From Catajapyx aquilonaris (taxonomy: Eukaryota): a DNA stretch of 47,449 nt. The DNA is taken from the NCBI GenBank assembly GCA_000934665.2, contig JYFJ02003012.1, positions 1-47,449 on the forward strand, given 5' to 3'. A model generated the notes under the pieces. The model had not been told where the DNA came from. It did not search any database and saw only the letters and a list, made by a program, of their open reading frames with translations. Within the stretch, counting starts at the first letter, position 1; each line of letters opens with the position of its first letter. Below are positions 6,544-45,487 of this stretch, piece after piece. A program made the translations under genes and the position numbers.

Positions 6544-8029
6544 GCAGAAAAAAACGGGAAAATAATGATGTTAGAAGCAAGCCACTTTGGGAAAATGTTA
6601 CCTGCTGGACTCAAAGAAAGGTTTTTGTCCACAGCACACGAAATACATATTCCTTGCCTGGGGAGGGGGAGTCAATTAAAATCAGGGGTGTGCTAATTTA
6701 AAGTGCGTCAACTGACGTATTCTTTCGGCTTAAATGTCGTTTCCGCGTAATTCGACAACTCTAAGGCGAATGGTGACCATGCCCCGTATGTCATTCACGT
6801 AATTTTTGCTCCTCTGACGTCATGTTTCAAAACGGTCGCCCCAGGCATGTGTCGTTAGTCTGTACGTTGTCCTCGTCCTGTAGGCTACATGATCCTGTAC
6901 CTCGTGCTGGCGCTATTGTGATGCGAATGGGGAGGCCATTTTTAAGGCAGCGCAGTAGCAAAAATACGGTAGGCGCATTTCATACCGAGCTTTATTTTTT
7001 TTGTCGCGAAACTCGTCGTTAATCTGGAAAAGTACGAACTAGGTGACATGCGCAAAGGTTTGACCTCTACAATGATGCCATACCTCGACATGATTGCGTT
7101 GAAAATTGTGGACATACGGCCACAGAAATGTGTCCGATTTTCACACAATTCCTGCCCCCATGTTAATCAAATTGGCTTTTCCAAAATGCCATTTTCCTAT
7201 CACTTCAACTAGCCGTAAGGTCATTTCTAGGCCGAAAATGGAAAAAAGACGCACTAGGTGCCCTGCGCCAGATCATCTACTATTTTTTGGTGCAATTTGT
7301 GTGTCGATTGAACAATTTTTGAAGCCGTACGGCCACAGAAATGCAAGCAATGCCGAATCCTCCTACGCTGCATGCATAAGCAAGTTTGTTGGGGTCGTCG
7401 CCAGGGGCATTAATTGTCACCGGAGAGACACGAGGCTCGAGGCTCGAGGTGAGTCAAGTGTTGAGCTTGGCAACGGGACAGGGATTGTTGGAGAGGGGGC
7501 AACAATTGCCTTCTATTGTTGTACAGCCATTCCGTAGGCTCGTTTCGACAGCTAGCTGCAGAGCCATCTGATTTACTGTATTTTTGCTACTGCGTCCCCT
7601 TAAATATAACGTCAGAGGGGCCAAATTACGTGAATGACATAGGGGGCATGGTCACCATATTCGTCTTGGCGGGGGAGGCGGAGTGGTGCTGCGGTAACGT
7701 ATGCGCCCACGGATGTTAAGGTCCCGGGTTCGATCCCAGCCCGGGGACACCCCCTTCATCTCGTGCAGAGTTCAGGGTCACCTCTGGCTTCGTCTCGGGT
7801 GGTATTTCCACAGACTAAACCACCCGGGGAAGTTCACTAAAAATAGCCACAGCGTCAGATGCACTGCACCTTGCACATCCCCTCCTGGCTCCTGTCATCC
7901 TGCCCGTGGGCCCGGGCGCTTCAAATAATTGGCTCTATGTACATAATGATTCAATCAAGGTTCCGTGTGATATACCCCCACCGGGGGTGAAAGCACCTAC
8001 CCAGGATTATATAATTATTATTATTATTA

Positions 8030-8080
<51 letters not shown>

Positions 8081-8294
8081 GTCTTGGCGGTGTCGGATTA
8101 AGCGGAAAAGCACATAAACAGAAAGAATCCGTCCGTTGACGCACTTTCAATATTAGCACACACCTGATTTTAATTTTAATGGCGGGATGAAATTATTTCG
8201 GGTACTGTGGACAAAATACCTGTCGTTAGGTCCAGGGAACATTTTTCCAAAGTGGCTTGCTTGTTCTAACATCATTATTTTGCCGTTTTTCTGC
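6544..8294. mobile_element. fold-back element, or two inverted copies of an unclassified repeat, with the right arm interrupted by a SINE
   Basis: 6544-~6972 aligns, with divergence, to the reverse complement of ~7572-8294 once the SINE at 7673-8075 is removed. Internal direct repeats start near 7038 and 7252. Confidence 0.7.
7673..8075 (+). mobile_element. tRNA-derived SINE, family A copy 1, with (ATT)n tail
   Basis: Pol III B box GGTTCGATCCC; 15 bp TSD TATTCGTCTTGGCGG at 7658-7672 and 8076-8090; two further copies in the window. Confidence 0.9.
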
Positions 8295-8297
8295 TAC

Positions 8298-8346
<49 letters not shown>
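8298..8346. repeat. (TTG)n microsatellite
   Basis: Read directly from the sequence. Confidence 0.97.
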
Positions 8347-9549: not shown

Positions 9550-9622
9550 TGCCTCTGCCGGGAATCGAACCCAGGTCCAGGCTCCGCACAGAGCACGTGT
9601 TCTACCACTGAACTACAGAGGT
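9550..9622 (-). pseudogene. tRNA-like sequence (Gly-like D and T arms, disrupted anticodon arm); pseudo-tRNA or SINE head
   Basis: Acceptor CCTCTG/CAGAGG; D arm GTTC-AGTGGTA-GAAC; T arm CTGGG-TTCGATT-CCCGG; no canonical anticodon stem. Confidence 0.7.
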
Positions 9623-10055: not shown

Positions 10056-10383
10056 ATAATAATAATTAATTAATAATAATTCTTGGGTAGTGCCTGACCT
10101 TATATATTTATAGGGTATGCGGCACGGACCTTTATTATAACTTGTAGTACATAGACCATATTTTTGAAACGCCCGGGCCCACGGGCAGGATGACAGCAGG
10201 GGATGTTCATGGTGCAGTGCAATGTCTTAATCGTGGCCATTTTTAGTGAACTCCCCCGGGTGGTTTAGTCTATTTGAACCCTGAACTCTGCACGAGATGA
10301 AGGGGGTGTCCCCGGGCTGGGATCGAACCCGGGACCTTAACATCCGTGGGCGCATACGTTACCGCAGCATCACTCCGCCTCCC
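10056..10383 (-). mobile_element. tRNA-derived SINE, family A copy 2
   Basis: The first ~105 nt differ from copy 1 at one position; (ATT)n-like tail; 12 bp TSD TCGTGGGAAATA at 10044-10055 and 10386-10397. Confidence 0.9.
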
Positions 10384-11322
10384 TATCGTGGGAAATACAA
10401 ACCCTCCCCAATAGGTCAAGTCCGTGGCCTTGACATCACCAAAAACATTACAATAATTCGCACCTTGCCATATTGATGCCGTAAACCTCTCACCCATCTA
10501 TGCTCTCCCCCTTCTCTTGGTAACTTTGCAGACACCACTTTTCGTACAATTAGCACGAGTGCAAAACCGTCACACCAATTCAGGGAGCAGTCTAAATTTG
10601 CGAAATTAGTTTTAATGCCGATTATGTTTAATTTAAAATGCTGGTTTTGCACTAAAGATTCGAAAAAAAAATCAGATATAGAGGAGTGGTACACGGTGCT
10701 GTTTCGATCATCATTCCTCTATCCGCCCTCTATCGGAAAGCCCTAGAAAGTATAGAAACTGGCACATTCGACGGTCAGACTGCAGGTAAATATTAGACCG
10801 GATATATCACGTTACTCACAGTCTACTACATCGGTACTCAAACCTTTTAGTTGTTCCCTAATATGATTCTTTAAATGAAACTATCTGTTTCGTTATCCTT
10901 CGCGTCGAAAGTGGCCAGTTTCCGAGAATGCAATTAGTTTCGGCCACGTTTCGCCCAACATCTAACTAGCGGAAAAACTAAACTCGTCACTGACAAGGCC
11001 AGGTTGCACCATTGCAGGTACAGCCTAAATCCTGGGTTTCCCCGTTGTTTCTAATTGCACTAAGAATTCCCCGACAGTTTACACCCACATATTCCTTGTC
11101 ATTCGTTAGAAAGGCAGGTTATAAGTGCATGAAATACATGTTTTAATCCGCCATATTACTTGGGAGGAAGTTATGAAATTGTAACTGCGACAGACTCCTT
11201 TTGGCACTCATCCTTTGGCCCCTTGGTGAAGGCGATAGAAAAAGAAGACAACCGTACCGGCATGAATGAATAATCATTTCCAATGTAACCAGATTATTGT
11301 CGTAAAGTGGTATAAGACACAC

Positions 11323-11568
11323 CTTTGGCGATGGAATTGGAGCCTTGTACGCCAAGACCTGTCACCTGAGAGGGCGGGTGAGGAATCGGTATCGGGGCTG
11401 CATGGTTGTTCCCGACGGCAGGTATGGAGGCTGAGCTTGACCTCAGGTCAGAGGTCGGAGCACCGGATGGGTTGGCGTTAAGGCAATAACTGCGTAAGGT
11501 CACCAACTCAGTGCTGAGGCTGCGTAGTCGCTGCTGCAAGTGCACGGCCTCGTTGGATGACGAAGCAT
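11323..11568 (-). CDS. dachs: dachs exon 2 (DASSSNEAVHLQQRLRSLSTELVTLR...NSIAK)
   Basis: Acceptor tttgacAG|ATGCT; donor AAA G|GTGTGT; 246 nt, phase 1-1. The 3' boundary is inferred from phase. Confidence 0.85.
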
Positions 11569-18020: not shown

Positions 18021-18795
18021 CAATCAGCTGCACGAGAAGAGATTATCCGCTCAAAAGCTCACGCCAGAGGGAGATTCATTCTTCATTTTTTTGTTTACCA
18101 CATTCATTGATATAATGCAAAGCTGGATTTACAATACTTACATAGGTGACAGTCGTTACGTTCGATGAAGTTCCATGACGTTATTGTCGCTGTTGAATGT
18201 CACCAATAAAGTAGGGGAAATTGGTGAATGGAAGAGTTTATAATGTAACGACAGTCACCAGTGTATCATGTAGCATGTATCATGGGTTTTCGACTTCATG
18301 TTCAAGGTTTTCCCTTCGAGGTAGCCGGAAGGTCTTTCATTGAACCAGAAATCTACTATTGGGCGTATTACTTTTCATTGGTTGTTCACACATCTAGACA
18401 ATCTTGAAAGTAAACCTATATCAGCGGTTACTGTACATTCATACGGTCAACAACATGCGCTGCAGAATTTTTACTATCCTTTTTGGGTGGGTCTTAGAAA
18501 AGTCTCACAACAGATGATTTTCTCATACGGGATGGGTTCTCCATAAGTCCTGTTCCCGGGGGCTTTATCCGGATTCTCCTGGTTTCTTCCACTACCAGAA
18601 TCCACGAGCATATACCATATGTGATTGAAGAACGACTCCATGTGAATTTGCGGGGATTTTCCTAATTTTCTTGGGTCCCCAGAGGTGCATCCCTGAGACA
18701 CTGATTTCTGGATGCTCGCAGGTTACTAACTCCCCCCCCCGGCCACAGTTACTTCATCGTCATTAAAACCATCACCACCTTGTCTGGCAGGCAGA

Positions 18796-19701: not shown

Positions 19702-20297
19702 CCCTTAACTGGCATCCTCATTTAGCCATGCTTAACTGGTATCGTGGGGTCCTTTTTGGACCCCACGTCGTTTTTTCGATTACAAACTTACATTAACAAA
19801 AAAATCAAAATATAAATGCTTCCAAAATTCGGCCGGGACTATAAGTGGCAGATAGAAAAAAAATTGACCTTCTGTGACCCTTGGTTAACTGATGAGGCGG
19901 TGTTTACTGTTTACCCGTATCTCACGTTAGTGACCCAGCAGCTGTAATGGTAGTCTCCTTACAATACTATACATAGATATTTTTTTTTACATCTCTGCAA
20001 TTTTTTATGCTTGCTACATCATGAATTTGCCGTGTCTATTTTTTAGGGTCGGAAAAAACTGGTCGCTAACTGGTAACATGGGGTCCTTTTTGGACTCCAA
20101 GACGACTAGTGAGCGTTTAAATGACGTTAACTCCCTTTCGAAAAATTTTTCGTCGCTCATAATTTTTTTTCCGGTGTGAAAGAGTATATTTCAGGAATAT
20201 AGGTGTGGGAATTTTCATTTTGACAAAAACCTGCTTCAAGGTGGTGACATAAGTATACCCTGGGGTCCAAAAAGGACCCCACGATACCAATTAAGGG
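19702..20297. mobile_element. piggyBac-like MITE
   Basis: TTAA|CCCTTAA ... TTAAGGG|TTAA. Subterminal TGGGGTCCTTTTTGGACCCCA repeats occur near both ends and internally. Confidence 0.85.
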
Positions 20298-21332
20298 TTA
20301 ATGACAAAAGCAGGAAGTTATTGGGTCATGCACTGAAAAATTTTCAATATCAAACTATAACCTATCAATATATTAGAATTTGCAAAAAGGTGTAAAAACG
20401 TCGCACCAAAAATTTGAGGTAAAGTATCCATTTTCTTCAGGGACACGGATAATTGCAAGACGAGGGGTCTGTGACCGTTGTGCGTGTGTTCCAGCCTGCC
20501 GTTTATTTATGATGCTCGTAACTTTTGAGTTACACGTATGAGTATCTGCAGTCTCATCCAGTCTCTTGGCATATCCTTCGTACTCTACACGTAAACTTTC
20601 ATGTCGATATACTGTACGCCTGGGACGTCAGAGTAGTTTATCTCTTCAGTAAGCTCTTACTTTGAAGGGTAGGCATATTTTTTTGAATCGTGGCAATGCC
20701 GAAAGACAATGATGAATAGTGTTGGCCATCCGAACGAGCCGGTGCCAGATGGAGTTGCTGTTCAGAAAGTGCTAGGCGTTGTAGTAACTAACTAAATCTC
20801 AGTGATTTACAAACTGGGTCTCATATTACAATTCGTAAAACTAGTGGTGTGGCCGCTGCATATGAAAGGAACATTTCAATCCGCAGTCATGTAAATAATC
20901 TAATGAGATATAATCCAATACTCTTAATAAATGATGCTGGTGAAACAGTGTTACGCCTACACTAGACGCGATTTGGTAATAGCGGAGATTTTAAAGTTGT
21001 AACATGACTTGGGGCAGTTGCACCAGGTCAGGTACAGATTTAAAGGATGTTATTCATTGTTTACTAATCGTTGCCAACATTGAATAACACCCGTTAAATC
21101 TGTTAAAGTATCCGACCTGATGCGGTTGATCACGCTGCTGTGTCTAAAGTGCTAGAATTTTTTGTCCTGCCTTTTAGGTACCACCAGCTCTCACCATTTC
21201 AATTGCAGGTCTTTGTCCTGGAGGTACAGGTGTCCCAAGAAAACTGTCCCTAAATTCCGGCACTGAGAAATGTTGTGCCATTGTTGACGAGAAAAAAAGT
21301 TTTCTCCCTCAAAAAACAAGCATTTTTCTCAC

Positions 21333-21462
21333 CCTTGATACCCATATCGATACTATCCATCACTTTTTGCACAGTGTCGAGGCGCCGAAAGCTTGTTAAA
21401 TGGGTAGCCCTATTCAAAGCCTCTTTTTCATCAAAATCAAGGTGATGACTCTCCTCTTCCAT
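21333..21462 (-). CDS. candidate alternative first coding exon of dachs (MEEESHHLDFDEKEALNRATHLTSFRRLDTVQKVMDSIDMGIK)
   Basis: ATG immediately preceded by an in-frame TAA; 130 nt (43 codons + 1); donor AAG G|GTGAGA. Phase 1, in frame with the exon 2 acceptor. Confidence 0.5.
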
Positions 21463-22502
21463 TTATTTCACTTTAACCATCGTTAGCTGGCACTCTCAAC
21501 ACACGACAAACTGTGAACATTGCATTTTTATCTGTTCGCATGCGAGAGATTCTCCAGGTCTAAACAACACGATTCGTAGACATGTACAAGTAAAAAAGTG
21601 ACGCACGTGTTGTTAGTAGAAAAATTCCAGGAGGGGGATGGTGGACCTTGGAGCTTGGAGGCAGTCACAAGTGAGCTGACCCAGTGGCTCGGGGCTCTCC
21701 TGAATGCAAATAGGAACTCCAAACGAGTTTCTTGACTTACTTGGCCATTGCCGACTCCAGAGCCCCGTAGCCCTCCCCCTTTGCCTTCTCTCTCAGACAG
21801 GTTGTTCATTAGTCGCCTTCGTGTGGTCCTGAATTCCCAACGACCCCTAAGAGAGGGGTTTCAGACGCACACCCCTAATTCCACTTGCACTGCTTCCTTG
21901 CCACCACCACACTCGGACACTCCACACACATACACACCCTTGGGGAATAGCATCGATCATATATCGGGGGACTTGAACTTGAACGATCATGGCTAAACAC
22001 AATGCTCCAGACCAATTTCGGCTAAACTTCCGATACAGACTTTGCGGTGGATGCGGAGGTGCTAATGGTGCTAAAAGCCTGCCTGATGTGACATTGTTCG
22101 GGCAACACAATGGGCTGCTTTGGGGATAATGGGGACTTATCAGAGGGGTTTGTGACTTTGAGTCGCATTTAGTGAGTTACGCGAAGTATTATATCCTCGT
22201 AGAATGTACGTTAGAAGGTGCATGGGATCTACTGATGATTCTAATGATGCGCCACCTATACGTCTTGAGAAGTTCTGCATCTCATCACATATTCGCACTA
22301 CTTAATGGAGTGATCGTAAATAAACTCAAATTTATAGTATTATGTCTGATATTGGCAAACCCGAGCCGTGTTTTTTGCGGAAACTAATGTCATGCGACAC
22401 ATTTAGACATGTTCTATAAATAACCCGATGAATATTCTCCTAGTCACCTACACATATCGAAAGATAAAACGATAAATGTGACTTTAAAAGAAGAGGAATC
22501 TT

Positions 22503-22596
22503 AAAGAGGTCTACACACAGCCTGCTTTCAAATTAGGTTAGTTTTAAGTCATAAGACTAAATTAGTAACAAAACTGGCCGTGTGTAGACCTCCTTT
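22503..22596. mobile_element. tiny MITE (AAGAGGTCTACACAC TIR, possibly Kolobok-like)
   Basis: ~20 bp inverted termini, with TTAA at the left. Confidence 0.5.
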
Positions 22597-22784
22597 ATAC
22601 AGGTAGGGTCCTCCTCCGAGAAAATATTTGGCAACTTGAGTGTAACCTTCCCACAGGATAATTAGGTGAATATTTCCACATGGTGTCAAGCTTTTTACCG
22701 CCACGTCAGGCGAGAAATCGTGCCTCATTCGCTCAGTCAAGTTCCGCCCATGTATTAGAACTTCTAAGCTACAAAAAAGTAATA

Positions 22785-23058
22785 GTTTTTCTCGGATTCA
22801 GGATCTTTACGAATTGCTACGTTGAAATTACCCTAGTTCATCTTGGTTATTTCGGCATCATTACGGAGAAAATTGCATGAATTAAGTGTACACGCGTAAG
22901 TAATCTGGCGACACATAGCACGAAAGATTGGCGGGTGCAACACTGAGTGTGTAATAAACATGAGCTTATTTATATGTAATAAAGACGAAATCTCCAAAAA
23001 ATTCACTAGGGTAATTTCATCTTAGAGAAATTCTCCAGAACCCTCCGGCTATGAAACA
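22785..23058. repeat. degenerate inverted repeat (TGAAATTACCCTAGT core), probable old MITE
   Basis: TGAAATTACCCTAGT at ~22823 and its reverse complement at ~23005, with weaker flanking symmetry. Confidence 0.55.
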
Positions 23059-27185: not shown

Positions 27186-27276
27186 CCTGTAGTTTCTTCT
27201 CCGCTTCCCAAAACTTCTGCAACTCGGTGAAGTATTTATCCAGGATGAATACTTTGGAAAGTCCCAATGTTGCCAT
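27186..27276 (-). CDS. dachs: dachs coding exon 1 (MATLGLSKVFILDKYFTELQKFWEAEKKLQ)
   Basis: ATG at 27276; 91 nt (30 codons + 1); donor CAG G|GTGAG. Phase 1 matches the exon 2 acceptor. Too short for the ORF track. Confidence 0.92.
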
Positions 27277-29019: not shown

Positions 29020-29440
29020 TATCATAAATGCGACTGCTTACACCATCTTACACAATAAGCTGCATCAATTTTTGTAGCAAATTGATTGATCTCCATCATA
29101 AGTTAATTATATATAGCTAATGACTAAACGGTACTGAATTAAATTGAAACAGGTCGTCACAATCAAAATTGCTCTCTGGCTAGATCATCATGTGACCCTC
29201 TTGAATGAAGTGGTATCAGGATTGTGGCATATATAGAATAGATATAGCAAATGGAGAGCCCCGCATAGCGGGCTATGCATGCATAAGAGGCTACTTGTAT
29301 AATACCGGTATTGATATAGACATTGGATATTGCGAGCAAAGTTTATGTCAATATTATTTTGAAGGCGGGCAATAATTTTCATCGCCATCCTGCCAAGTTA
29401 TTAATACCTTCCACTACTTATAACGAACTAATATGGTTGC

Positions 29441-29519
<79 letters not shown>
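29441..29519. repeat. (TAA)n microsatellite
   Basis: Read directly from the sequence; it explains the poly-I and poly-N ORFs. Confidence 0.97.
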
Positions 29520-31155
29520 CGCAACAACAAAAATAACTTCAACAATGATGGGACTAAAAATAATCGCTTTTCATTTCATGCGACACATGTGGTGCCATTA
29601 ATCACATGGCCTTAACGCACAAGAACGGTTAAATTGCAGAATGAGATGTTTGATTGATGATGTAGAGGGTTAACAGGGGACAACACACAACAATAGCACT
29701 TATCAGCGTACCACTCGCACCCAATGTGAGAGCCATGATGGATGATTTTGCGATAATGTCGCTTATTGTTTTCGAAACAGAACCGCTTTGGTGTCCAAAA
29801 ACTTAAATCCATGATATCATATCATTTTTGCTGTTGTAACGGACTGGGTTAAAAGGAGGCTGCGGAATTTTTCTCTCTTCGCGTAAATGTGGCACTTACG
29901 TGACCATACACTCGCTTGTGGAGAGAAAGATGCAATGAAAAACTTGACTTCATTCCGGTGGAACATTCGTGCGCCCTTTTTTATATACTAGTGTCATTTT
30001 TCTTAGATAACAATTTAAAAGAAATACGAGGATTCCAATGCAATGTCGTGTTAAGTTAACAGCGGTACCAATACCGTACATGTTTTTATGATGGACTGCC
30101 CAAAAAGTGATTACTTCTTAGTGAACTTGCGGCACACACATAGACTGCTATAATTTCAACAGTAATTCCCTGATACAAGATTATTTGAGCAGAGTTCTTA
30201 CACTCTGCTCCAATAATCTTGTATCAGGGAATTCTCGAAGATTATCCACTATGTCATAAGTTTTTAATATTATCGTATCATTTTTCATTAACTTATAATG
30301 ATAAATTCGTTGATATTTTGTAGTGTGACTGTATGTTACATTTCCTCTTTTTTTCTTCAACACCCACAAGACCAAAGAGGAAAACGCTGGTATATTTCCC
30401 GGTCAACCAGCCCTACATGTATGTATCTGAATACAAGAGGACCCATTATAAAATTGCTCATCGTGCCTCGAACAGACTTGTTTCGTGTTGTAACGCTCGT
30501 GGAACTGCCATCTGTTATATCCTACAGGAACTTGTGATAAAACTTGCGCCCTACCCACAGTAGGTGGTGTTAACGGTTCCACTTGGAGGAACACACCGTA
30601 AACAATATATCTTCAAATACGAGCCACTGTTACTACATAATTGCAATAGTTGTATTATGGTTAATACCGATACATTTAGAACATGTGAGGCTGCGCGGCG
30701 GAAGGTGTGGTTGGCAGCTAATGAGACGGAGAGGCTGATCTTGGTGATTGAGTAACCGAAACATTTTCCCCTTTTGATCGTCTTGACACCTCTCTGAATC
30801 TTATAAGGCAGCAAACAAAATAATATAAAAACCAAAGTGGTCAGAGTGAGTGTGGAGGCATTTTCAATAAAGTGGTAGTCTGGAATTAGTGGCAACAGAT
30901 CTGCTGTTGAAAGTACTGAACCAAAAGTTGTCACTACCTCCTCGAAGGTAGGCATCACTCACGTCAACGACTGCGTCATACTGTGCTCCCATTAATCACA
31001 TGGTAGGGTAGACTCTGAGGCAGAGAAACATAATTTCGTCAGTATTGTAATCAATGATAGTACACCGTATATTATCCGCAACTTCAGAATTGCAACACGT
31101 GTGCTTCATAACGATTTTCATAGTGGGCCAGTTCCTTCACACAATGATATCATTA

Positions 31156-38963: not shown

Positions 38964-39953
38964 ATGAAGATATATGTTTGCCCCTACTGTACAGAACCGC
39001 AGACATTATTCTTACGAAAACGGATCCAGACAAGCTATGCATTCCTTCTGTAAAGGGGGGCGGTACAGACATGCAAAGTAGGCGGACCCAGTCTATGCGG
39101 ACGGAAAATACTTATAGTGCCCGATTTGCATGCATACCCAAGGTTAAAAGGGTACACTTGGCACTGAGCTACCATTATACCCATTTACTTATGCATCAAT
39201 ATCCGGATTCGCACTTACTTGAAGTCCTAGTGGAATCCGTGCTGAGATCCTTCTTAGCCATCGAGGAATTGTCATCAGTTGCATCCCTACACAGAGTCCT
39301 GCAGCACAAAGTCCTCGCAAACCGTTCCAACGTCTCCTGCAACGCTACCTTCTCCTGGTATCGGCAAAAGAAATCCGGCCGGATCCTATTCCTCTCCATA
39401 AACTCATCCCACGCCTGGATTCGTGCCCGGATTCTCTCCACCTGCTCCAGCACTTTCTTTTTCCCCAACACTCCATCCTCTTCATAAACCTCGTCCGGCA
39501 GAAGCACTTCCTTGGCCGGCATGTTGCGCACATGGTTCTATTCCCTCTGGGCATTGTTCATCGGCGGCCTGGGGGAAACGACCAAGCACCACATATTATA
39601 AACCCCCCCCCTCCAAATAAAAAAAAGGGGGACAAGAGGAGTGGAGGGTGGGGGGGAAGATGAAAGGTAAGATCCACCTCTTGTACACGATATTGGCCTC
39701 CCCAATACAGGTTTCCCGCGCCCTCCTCCTTACCCTTTTTTTTATATACTAGGTGGATGGATGGTACGCAAATTTTCACATCGAAAACCAGTGAAGCCCT
39801 CAAATGGACACTTGCAGGCCGGATGAGGTCCGTTTTTGTTGTGAGAAGGTTTGTCCTGGCAACACCACCACCAAAGTCACGTCGGCTCAACCCCCGTGAG
39901 AAACCCCCCCCCCCCCTCCACTCCACCTGTGTCCCCGCCTCTCTTCAACTACT
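38964..39953. mobile_element. possible Polinton/Maverick terminal remnant with two convergent decayed ORFs
   Basis: Minus-strand terminus AGTAGTTGAAGAGAGGCGGGG at 39953; G/C-run-rich subterminus; TATA-like motifs; ORF 39561-39196 (-) with one internal stop; RING-like remnant 38964-39147 (+). Confidence 0.4.
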
Positions 39954-43194: not shown

Positions 43195-44199
43195 TATATA
43201 CCGCTGTATTTCTAAAACATGTATATCGCGTGGGTATACAAGTGAAATCCACCTATAGTCCGAAAAACCAGTTTTGTGATAATCGAAGGCAAATATTTGA
43301 TCTTGCACTTGCCTCCATGCTAGTGATACAGAAAATCCTGTCTGGTTGACTTATTATGAATCTTTCTGACGAAATGAACTTCATCAGACGATAAAGAAGA
43401 AGAAAACGTTACTTGGAGCCGATTGTATGAACTGTGCTTAAGATTAACTGCGGAGTTAACAACAGATAACTCCGTAGTTATCTTTAAATCGTGTTCATAC
43501 AACCTTCCGTTATAGTCACTTAGTGGATCTCTCCCGTATGCCGACGACATGAACATGTACAGTTACAGTATGTGTGAAAGAGTTACTTTGCTGTCCTCCT
43601 CAGTTCAGTGACGTGCGAAACTTTTCAGAGCAGCATTGTAGATGACTGTATGGCACTGTACAAAGGAAGTGTTAACACCTTACAACTCGAACAAAAGACT
43701 GTCTATGCAGAAGATCTGACAATACACACTATCAGAATGACAGAATCACATTTCACTTTCGAGATATGAGGGGTTTGAAGCTCGAAGATTGCAATACTCT
43801 TTCGATATTAAAAAAGCTCTATACGGGCTAGGGGCCCTGTAATTTCTCCATCATGATAAATTTGAGTTGACTCTCATCAAGTACCCTTCGAGAATTGCAG
43901 GGAGCAATGCCTAAGTCAAAATGATTGTGACTGTGATTATTCTGCATTTCAGATCTACAGTTACCAATATATTTGTCCTTTGTTCAGTGTTGCAGCAATA
44001 TATCATAACAAATTAAAATAATGTAATATGTGTAAGGCACAAGTGATAATATTTATACTGTGTGTCTCGAATAATAAGCCCATACAAACGGTTCCGACTA
44101 GCCTCCCTATGCCCTCCCTCCTGCCGCTTTCTCTCCCTCTATACTGTTTTCATATTATGGCCGGAATCGTGGCGGCTCGCGTAAGTCTGCAGGGGCATA

Positions 44200-44980
44200 A
44201 ATTGTGACGTAACTCCCATACGGACGACGGACGCCATCGTGGTGAAAAGTTACGGGAGGCGCGCGATTGAAAACATCCTGTAAATCCACGGGACGTCTCG
44301 AGAGTCCATAGGACTTATGGGAGTGTTGGCTTTTTCAGGCCCCCAGGGAGTTTTGGTGGGGCAGGGTTTGCTTCAGGTTGCGGGGGAGAGTGCCCGGGGG
44401 AGGCATGGGGCTTGGGGCGGCCCCGGGACGGCCCGGGGGTCTTTTCGGATGTGACTTCCGTCAGGTCGGATTTTACATCGCCTCACCAACCAAATGCAAT
44501 GAAATCTTGTGGAGTGAGGACCGGGACGGATCGTGGCTGTGGGCGGACCGTGGCTAGGGGCGGCCCCGGGGCGGCCCGGGGCCACTTTGAATGTTGCGTT
44601 CTCAGTTCTGTAATGTCGGATTTATCATCACATCCCCAACCGAATGCAATGCAATGGTGTGGGGTGCCACCCAGGGGCAGCCCGAGGGCCAGTTTGGATG
44701 CTCTTTGTAGAGTCGGGAAGGACCGCCCGCCGGCCACATGGTTCACATTGCGCACCTAGGGCCCTGCGCCGATGATTGCCACCCAGCCACCGTACCCACC
44801 AACTTGACAGAGAAACCCCCACCCCCACCCTTGCCCCCACCTACACCACCTCACATATGCAACCCGCGCGAGAAGCCTGTTCCGGGATTGGCTGTTAGAG
44901 CCCATTGCGTCACGGATACCAGGCTTTGCAAGTGATATCTGGGGGTTGAGTCCGGCCGATTAAAGAGCCGATATGCTAGT
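44200..44980. mobile_element. GC-rich repeat with internal ~143 bp tandem units, ending CTAG|TT (Helitron/Helentron-like)
   Basis: Units begin GGGGCGGCCCCGGG at ~44414 and ~44557, with a partial third at ~44674. The left boundary is uncertain. Confidence 0.4.
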
Positions 44981-45148
44981 TCACCACGATGGACTTCTCC
45001 TTTAGATATAAGGCCCCTTTACCGGCCGCCATGTTTACAGGCGTCACGTGACTTGCAGGGACATACATGTGGGAGACACCGCGATTCCGGCCTATGACAG
45101 TTTACATTCTGGATGGACTATACCTTGTACAGCTAGTGATTAGAATGT

Positions 45149-45487
45149 GCGTGTTTTTTTTTACAGTACCCCATTCTCAGGCCTTGGGCCCTTTTTAGGG
45201 GAGTGGAATACCACTATTTTTGGAACCGTATAATATGATATTAATCATATTATTTAATTGTTCCCAGGGTAAGTAGGAGGGGATGTGCAAAGTGCAAGTG
45301 CAATGTCGCATATTGGTCATTTTGTGAACTCCCACGGGTGGATTAGTCGAGCGGAAATTTCCACCCGAGACGAAGCCAGAGATGGCCCAACTCTGCACGA
45401 GATGAAGGGGGGAACTCCAGGCTGGGATCGAACCCGGGACTTAACATCCGTGGGCGCGTGCGTTACCGCAGCCCCACTCCGACTCCC
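45149..45487 (-). mobile_element. tRNA-derived SINE, family A head with a different 3' tail (copy 3)
   Basis: Same head and core as 7673 and 10383; 12 bp TSD TGATTAGAATGT at 45137-45148 and 45488-45499; poly-A tail. Confidence 0.88.

Follow-up and report, generated by a model that had tools for sequence, protein, structure and literature searches.

In insects, growth and planar polarity are controlled by Fat/Dachsous signalling through the myosin Dachs. In arthropods the dachs gene has N-termini of two types, A (MATLGLSKVFILDKYF..) and B ((M)LLPDETYE..IRPEFFCRHRE..), each encoded by a first exon with its own ATG and a phase-1 donor, and the common exon that follows begins (D/N)ASSSNEAVHLQQRL. 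Both types are conserved across insects, and type A is also present in decapods; the pair is seen as isoform X1 and X2 models of unconventional myosin-IXb-like dachs in bees, wasps, beetles and mayflies. No functional study of the dachs 1A and 1B first exons came up in the literature searched, and among the papers listed in a search on alternative promoters of dachs none mentions dachs.

The part of the protein that an alternative first exon would modify corresponds to the N-terminal region of fly Dachs. In the sections of Zhang et al. (2016, eLife, PMC5047748) that deal with this region, the N-terminal portion of Dachs is described as holding a coiled-coil motif conserved in insects, and the region N-terminal to the head as dispensable both for function and for subapical localisation: a form from which it is deleted rescues, without being fully active.

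Here I analyse a window of 47,449 nt from Catajapyx aquilonaris (contig JYFJ02003012.1, the whole stretch of DNA considered below), which carries a dachs gene on its minus strand. A sequence-only reading of this DNA had proposed that a short open frame inside an intron of the gene, hereafter 1C, is an alternative N-terminus of Dachs. The frame is compared below with the conserved first exons of the gene, with chance expectation and with the known arthropod proteins.

Results

A dachs gene with two conserved first coding exons

By its homology, the gene is the arthropod dachs orthologue. A search with the exon-2 peptide returned 243 proteins at E <= 1 among 453 candidates; they are arthropod proteins, named dachs or unconventional myosin-IXb-like dachs. 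Of 751 candidates from a search with a motor-domain exon, 430 proteins had E <= 1e-5; identity peaked at 94% and no match was identical. With four orthologues as queries, tblastn placed the motor exons between 9079 and 1361.

The common acceptor exon, exon 2 (11323..11568, minus strand), carries ..DASSSNEAVHLQQRLRSLSTELVTLR.. and is entered in phase 1. It opens AT GCT TCG TCA TCC AAC GAG directly after ttgacag, which gives an Asp at the junction as in orthologues (..KLQ|DASSSNEAV). Two first coding exons lie upstream. The coding part of exon 1A (27186..27276, minus strand) starts with the ATG at 27276, encodes MATLGLSKVFILDKYFTELQKFWEAEKKLQ plus one G and ends in phase 1 at a donor G|GTGAGT; it is 96.7% identical to the Cloeon orthologue in tblastn. 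The coding part of exon 1B (39219..39522, minus strand) lies 12 kb upstream of exon 1A and consists of 101 codons plus one A, from the ATG at 39522 to the phase-1 donor TCA A|GTAAGT at 39219. Its product is a B-type N-terminus (MPAKEVLLPDEVYEE..WDEFMERNRIRPDFFCRYQEKVALQ..) with the motifs LLPDEVYEE .. IRPDFFCRYQEK .., the type-B core being present as IRPDFFC, and a profile built from 27 distinct B-type N-termini gives it 59.6 bits.

In orthologues, either type A (MATLGLSKVFILDKYFTELQKFWETEKKLQ) or the B-type sequence (M)LLPDETYE..IRPEFFC precedes the same exon 2, and the window encodes both. The exon-2 motif, as I defined it, was found in 138 of the 209 fetched proteins, and their N-termini are of type A in 39 cases, of type B in 36 and of another kind in 63. 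Judged from the 10 of these 63 that exceed 400 aa and from the first 120 N-termini of the fetched set, the last class mostly looks like ab initio models or short ORF calls that extend from the intron into exon 2. As classified from these proteins, no N-terminus other than types A and B is conserved before exon 2. Since both types occur in orthologues and both are encoded in the window, dachs has here two conserved alternative first coding exons, 1A and 1B, both feeding exon 2, to which 1C would add a third. Exon 1B is the genuine conserved alternative N-terminus of dachs.

The premise of the sequence-only reading, that the N-terminal peptide of Dachs is swapped by means of alternative first exons, is therefore right for the gene family, given that orthologues carry type A or type B before exon 2. 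Its designation of the host intron as intron 1 is right in so far as 1C lies in the intron between exons 1A and 2, but it overlooked exon 1B, another first coding exon, which lies 12 kb upstream of 1A.

One stretch of exon 2 departs from its relatives. At 11470-11492 (minus strand), after the highly conserved ..LSTELVTLR, the window has SYCLNANPSG where the insect, spider and tick sequences compared have NRLHV, so that the conserved coiled-coil motif carries several non-conservative changes and is one residue longer.

Anatomy of the intronic frame

The coding part of candidate exon 1C (21333..21462, minus strand) comprises an ATG at 21462-21460, 42 further codons and one G. It opens ATG GAA GAG GAG, closes ATC AAG G, and its 43 codons encode MEEESHHLDFDEKEALNRATHLTSFRRLDTVQKVMDSIDMGIK; the extra G at 21333 leaves it in phase 1. 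This G would be the last exon base of a junction AAG G|GTGAGA, in which the donor-like GTGAGA (21332-21327, minus strand) follows AGG. The consensus donor is MAG|GTRAGT, of which the site matches 7 of 9 positions; on its sense strand, the intron between 1A and 2 has only three [AG]G|GTRAG sites, and this is one of them. Immediately upstream, and in the same frame, is a 5-codon uORF (21463..21480, minus strand; ATG GTT AAA GTG AAA TAA, encoding MVKVK), the TAA stop of which abuts the candidate ATG. Were 1C spliced to exon 2, the carried G and the first two bases of that exon, AT, would form the Asp codon; the phase fits and the frame stays open across the junction.

The structural claims made for 1C from the sequence alone thus hold. 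The ATG-led frame of 43 codons, running from the ATG at 21462 to its phase-1 end at 21333, was described exactly to the base; the phase and the G|GTGAG junction are those of exon 1A, which ends CAG G|GTGAGT at 27186 in phase 1; splicing to exon 2, which starts at 11568 after ttgacag, would be in frame through G+AT; and the uORF at 21480-21463 does end directly at the candidate ATG, in the same frame.

The interpretation that I favour, with about even confidence, is that 1C is an intronic open frame that ends at a donor-like GTGAG by chance and is probably not a used coding exon. If so, the alternative N-termini of Dachs would be made from 1B (39522-39219) and 1A (27276-27186), both joined in phase 1 to exon 2 at 11568, and the candidate frame, its uORF and its donor would have no role. 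The main rival, which I regard as a serious possibility with the chances somewhat against it, is a real lineage-specific third first coding exon. An internal promoter in a GC-rich block upstream would then produce a transcript with 21333 as the last base of its first (or second) exon, which is joined to exon 2, and a Dachs isoform would begin MEEESHH.. in place of the A or B peptide, with the abutting uORF, which has a strong start context, keeping translation low or conditional. The phase-1 donor and the in-frame junction argue for this rival.

The combination of frame and donor is within chance

The intron between 1A and 2 measures 15,617 nt and has 25 GTRAG sites on its sense strand, two of which close an ATG-led frame that is 43 codons or longer and ends in phase 1. 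One of the two is 1C. The other, at donor 18508, ends a frame of 44 codons (18509..18641, minus strand) in phase 1 at GTT|GTGAGA and serves below as a chance comparator. When the intron was shuffled 500 times with its dinucleotides preserved, such ORF and donor combinations averaged 0.64 per intron, and 46.6% of the shuffled introns had at least one. With the stricter junction G|GTRAG, the mean fell to 0.148 and 14.2% of the shuffles had at least one. Of the 213 site-phase combinations on the antisense strand across the whole window, 7 have an equivalent frame. The pattern of ORF plus donor is thus, taken alone, within chance and no evidence by itself, which counts against a third exon.

Codon composition

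Codon log-odds were trained on 596 codons of the confirmed dachs exons against trinucleotide frequencies in the rest of the window. By this measure 1C scores 0.183 log2 units per codon, against -0.18 +/- 0.15 for the non-exonic null. It ranks second of 144 among non-exonic ATG ORFs that are 43 codons or longer, for which the mean is -0.18 (sd 0.135). Only 3 of 553 non-overlapping, non-exonic open windows of 43 codons reach the score of 1C, and the confirmed exons themselves, in leave-one-out scoring, average 0.014 and span -0.15 to 0.23. Among the 21 non-exonic combinations of an ORF with a GTRAG site, 1C comes top; the comparator at 18509-18641 scores -0.151 and is null-like. Purines occupy codon position 1 in 72% of the codons of 1C, a proportion reached by 3 of the 144 null ORFs. 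In composition, then, 1C is coding-like, and both its exon-like codon usage and its purine periodicity favour a third exon.

Against that exon stands the outcome of a sliding 30-codon window, in which 13 non-exonic segments of the minus strand outscore the best segment of 1C. Since these 13 segments are purine-rich stretches, the codon statistic partly measures composition: purine-rich non-coding DNA can imitate a coding signal. Beyond the exon-like composition, nothing shows that 1C is used.

Start context, leader and promoter signs

According to Kozak's rules a purine is preferred at position -3. The candidate ATG, in the context taaATGg, has a T there; the ATG of the uORF, located 18 nt upstream and in frame, has the context acgATGg, with A at -3 and G at +4. 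By the same rules, the strong context of the upstream ATG, set against the weak one of the main ATG, implies that scanning ribosomes would mostly take the uORF first. The T at -3 and the strong in-frame upstream ATG directly ahead weigh against a third exon, and a favourable start context with a usable leader appears to be lacking at 1C. Further upstream ATGs are found at 21541, 21525 and 21520; they are a weak point against 1C, because the leader of exon 1B has several ATGs as well. An A-rich stretch, GATAAAAAT, lies at 21532-21524, upstream of the candidate ATG.

A possible intron of 180 nt (21559-21740, minus strand) was observed just upstream of 1C, with a donor CAA|GTAAGT (21740|21739), a perfect TACTAAC (21619-21613) followed by a T-rich tract, and an acceptor TTTAG|A (21560|21559). 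If this intron were used, the candidate ATG would lie in a second exon, behind a leader with four ATGs.

Upstream of 1C there is a GC-rich block (21600..22100, no strand assigned), where the GC content of 200-nt windows is 0.48-0.55, the mean over all 47,449 nt being 0.423. Exons 1A and 1B have blocks of comparable size upstream of them, and this resemblance argues for a third exon. Conversely, the absence of any TCAGTY initiator motif from the minus strand between 19892 and 26626 argues against one. The motif CACGTG occurs 16 times in the window where 7.1 occurrences are expected, a count reached by 1 of 100 shuffles, and one copy is at 21604-21609; the sites are scattered and prove nothing about a promoter. 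Three CACGTG copies were also seen within 850 nt upstream of the ATG of exon 1A, and the 1.6 kb that precede exon 1B likewise have three.

Protein searches

The 1C peptide was searched for in several protein collections. Among proteins of 77-2000 aa, none has three 5-residue words in common with it. With phmmer, 1.84 billion cluster representatives yielded two matches (E 1.5e-4 and 2.0e-4), both of which were rejected as artefacts because they are tandem-repeat proteins in which weak repeats add up and no single stretch is matched. A metagenome scan with the 70-aa frame that runs from the ATG to the stop gave 329 pattern matches, none of them confirmed. In blastp against 211 proteins, namely the dachs-search matches and the two repeat proteins, the best E value among the dachs-search matches was 2.4, and at E up to 50 the 1C peptide gave no alignment to a type A N-terminus, although at least 39 of the 211 proteins are of type A. 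Pfam has no family for the 43-aa or the 70-aa translation, nor for the other long non-exonic ORFs in the window.

That the protein searches brought up no homologue speaks against a third exon. It is, however, weak evidence, since the collections hold no proteins of the species itself or of a near relative, as indicated by a best identity of 94% for a very conserved motor exon.

Likeness to B-type N-termini

A likeness of 1C to B-type N-termini was first noticed by eye and then tested. Against the B-type profile, 1C scores 4.3 bits, over the variable positions 9-36, a score reached by 9 of 2000 shuffles and by none of 549 non-exonic windows. Neither the LLPDE.YE start nor the core IRP[ED]FFCR[YH][RQ]E is present in its 43 residues. 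At the DNA level 1C resembles neither exon 1B nor any other part of the window, in which it is single copy. In sequence terms the likeness is marginal and provides a lead only. Being confined to the variable part of B-type N-termini, it lends weak support to a third exon.

The same marginal likeness at profile positions 9-36 could instead mark a remnant, that is, a diverged partial B-type first exon that is no longer an exon, or a rarely included stop-bearing stretch (entered for instance at the AG at 21511). Entry from a phase-1 exon at 21510 would reach a TAA after 12 codons, which suits a stop-bearing stretch; the A-rich tract that precedes the AG at 21511 does not. Nor does the likeness extend beyond the donor. 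Reading 1C through the donor into the 70-aa frame lowers the score to 3.1 bits, a value attained by 36 of 3000 shuffles, and the residues gained contribute nothing (653 of 3000). The idea that 1C, so read, is a decayed full B-type exon was rejected, as the read-through adds neither score nor core. The defining IRP[ED]FFC core is missing as well, and at the DNA level nothing in the window, exon 1B included, resembles 1C; a remnant is improbable.

Possible foreign elements and other features of the window

A foreign nested element, whether part of a transposon or the initial exon of a separate gene lying in the intron, would account for an exon-like composition without dachs homology, but is highly improbable given that the 43-aa and 70-aa translations belong to no Pfam family and have no homologue among the 1.84 billion representatives, and that 1C has no second copy in the window, no tandem repeat around it (20000-23000) and no Rfam family.

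A nested RNA gene or repeat at 1C was also considered and rejected, the only Rfam match in the window being a tRNA-like element at 9550-9622 and the region 20000-23000 being free of tandem repeats. The tRNA-like element (minus strand) scores 42.8 bits with the Rfam tRNA model, and ARAGORN assigns it an odd anticodon of four bases. Elsewhere, two ORFs at 10270-10497 and 45195-45440 (both minus strand) have a translation in common, ..VPGSIPA..PLHLVQS.., which suggests, together with the tRNA-like element, copies of a tRNA-derived SINE. GC content peaks, kilobase by kilobase, at 44001-45000 (0.56), a stretch that contains an internally repeated ORF (..HQPNAMKSCGV.. / ..HPQPNAMQWCGV..) for which Pfam has no family; this kilobase could be a repeat element or a distal promoter region of dachs. 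Long microsatellites of the trinucleotide type, at about 8000-8330 and 29400-29560, give poly-Ile and poly-Leu runs in ORFs.

Discussion

Two estimates bear on the choice between a chance frame and a third exon. Chance pairs of an ORF and a donor are common, but pairs with a codon score such as that of 1C are rare: I estimate that about 0.01 would be expected over the long introns of the gene. Real extra first exons of such a length, judged from the gene models seen, are estimated to occur at a few per cent of dachs loci. Weighing the remaining observations, the weak start context and the orphan status count against 1C, and the GC block and the marginal B-type likeness count for it. What is shown is how the sequence is laid out, that the gene is a dachs orthologue, that it has two conserved first exons, how often chance yields such a pattern and that no homologue turned up; that 1C goes unused is what I infer.

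In its fullest form the case for an exon would be that 1C is a genuine young third first exon, which may have arisen when part of a B-type exon was copied and diverged, with an intronic promoter at 21600-22100 and translation gated by the uORF, and that it gives an isoform with neither conserved peptide ahead of the coiled coil. This more specific proposal I hold tentatively, as one that may be true but is rather doubtful.

The functional consequence that the sequence-only reading attached to 1C, namely an altered localisation of Dachs or altered partner binding through the swap of the N-terminus, finds no support in the fly deletion as presented in the relevant sections of PMC5047748. Since the deletion form described there still localises and rescues, exchanging the extreme N-terminus would not be expected to redirect Dachs, subtler effects being possible.

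If true, a third N-terminal isoform would represent a lineage-specific regulatory layer on a gene that already uses two conserved first exons; if unused, 1C is an ordinary false initial exon. The more solid result is the pair of first exons A and B, conserved across arthropods and present in the window, which is a better target for isoform-specific experiments than an orphan ORF.

Comparison with known systems

1C has the phase of the type A and type B first exons of arthropod dachs and would yield the same Asp at the junction with the common exon. It differs from them in having no homologue and in lacking the defining motifs of both types, whereas A and B are conserved.

Another parallel is provided by isoform X5 of Chelonus insularis (MKIVKQC|DASSSNEA) and isoform X2 of Macrobrachium nipponense, in which, as 1C would do, a third, non-conserved peptide is annotated before exon 2. 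The annotation of extra first exons in these models favours a third exon in Catajapyx as well; the two N-termini, known here as gene models, have no sequence likeness to that of 1C.

The remaining class of comparison is that of false initial exons, which share with 1C a short ATG-led frame, a GTRAG donor and the lack of a homologue, and of which the same intron supplies a second instance at 18641-18509. From this comparator 1C is set apart by its codon score, 0.183 versus -0.151, which is far more exon-like.
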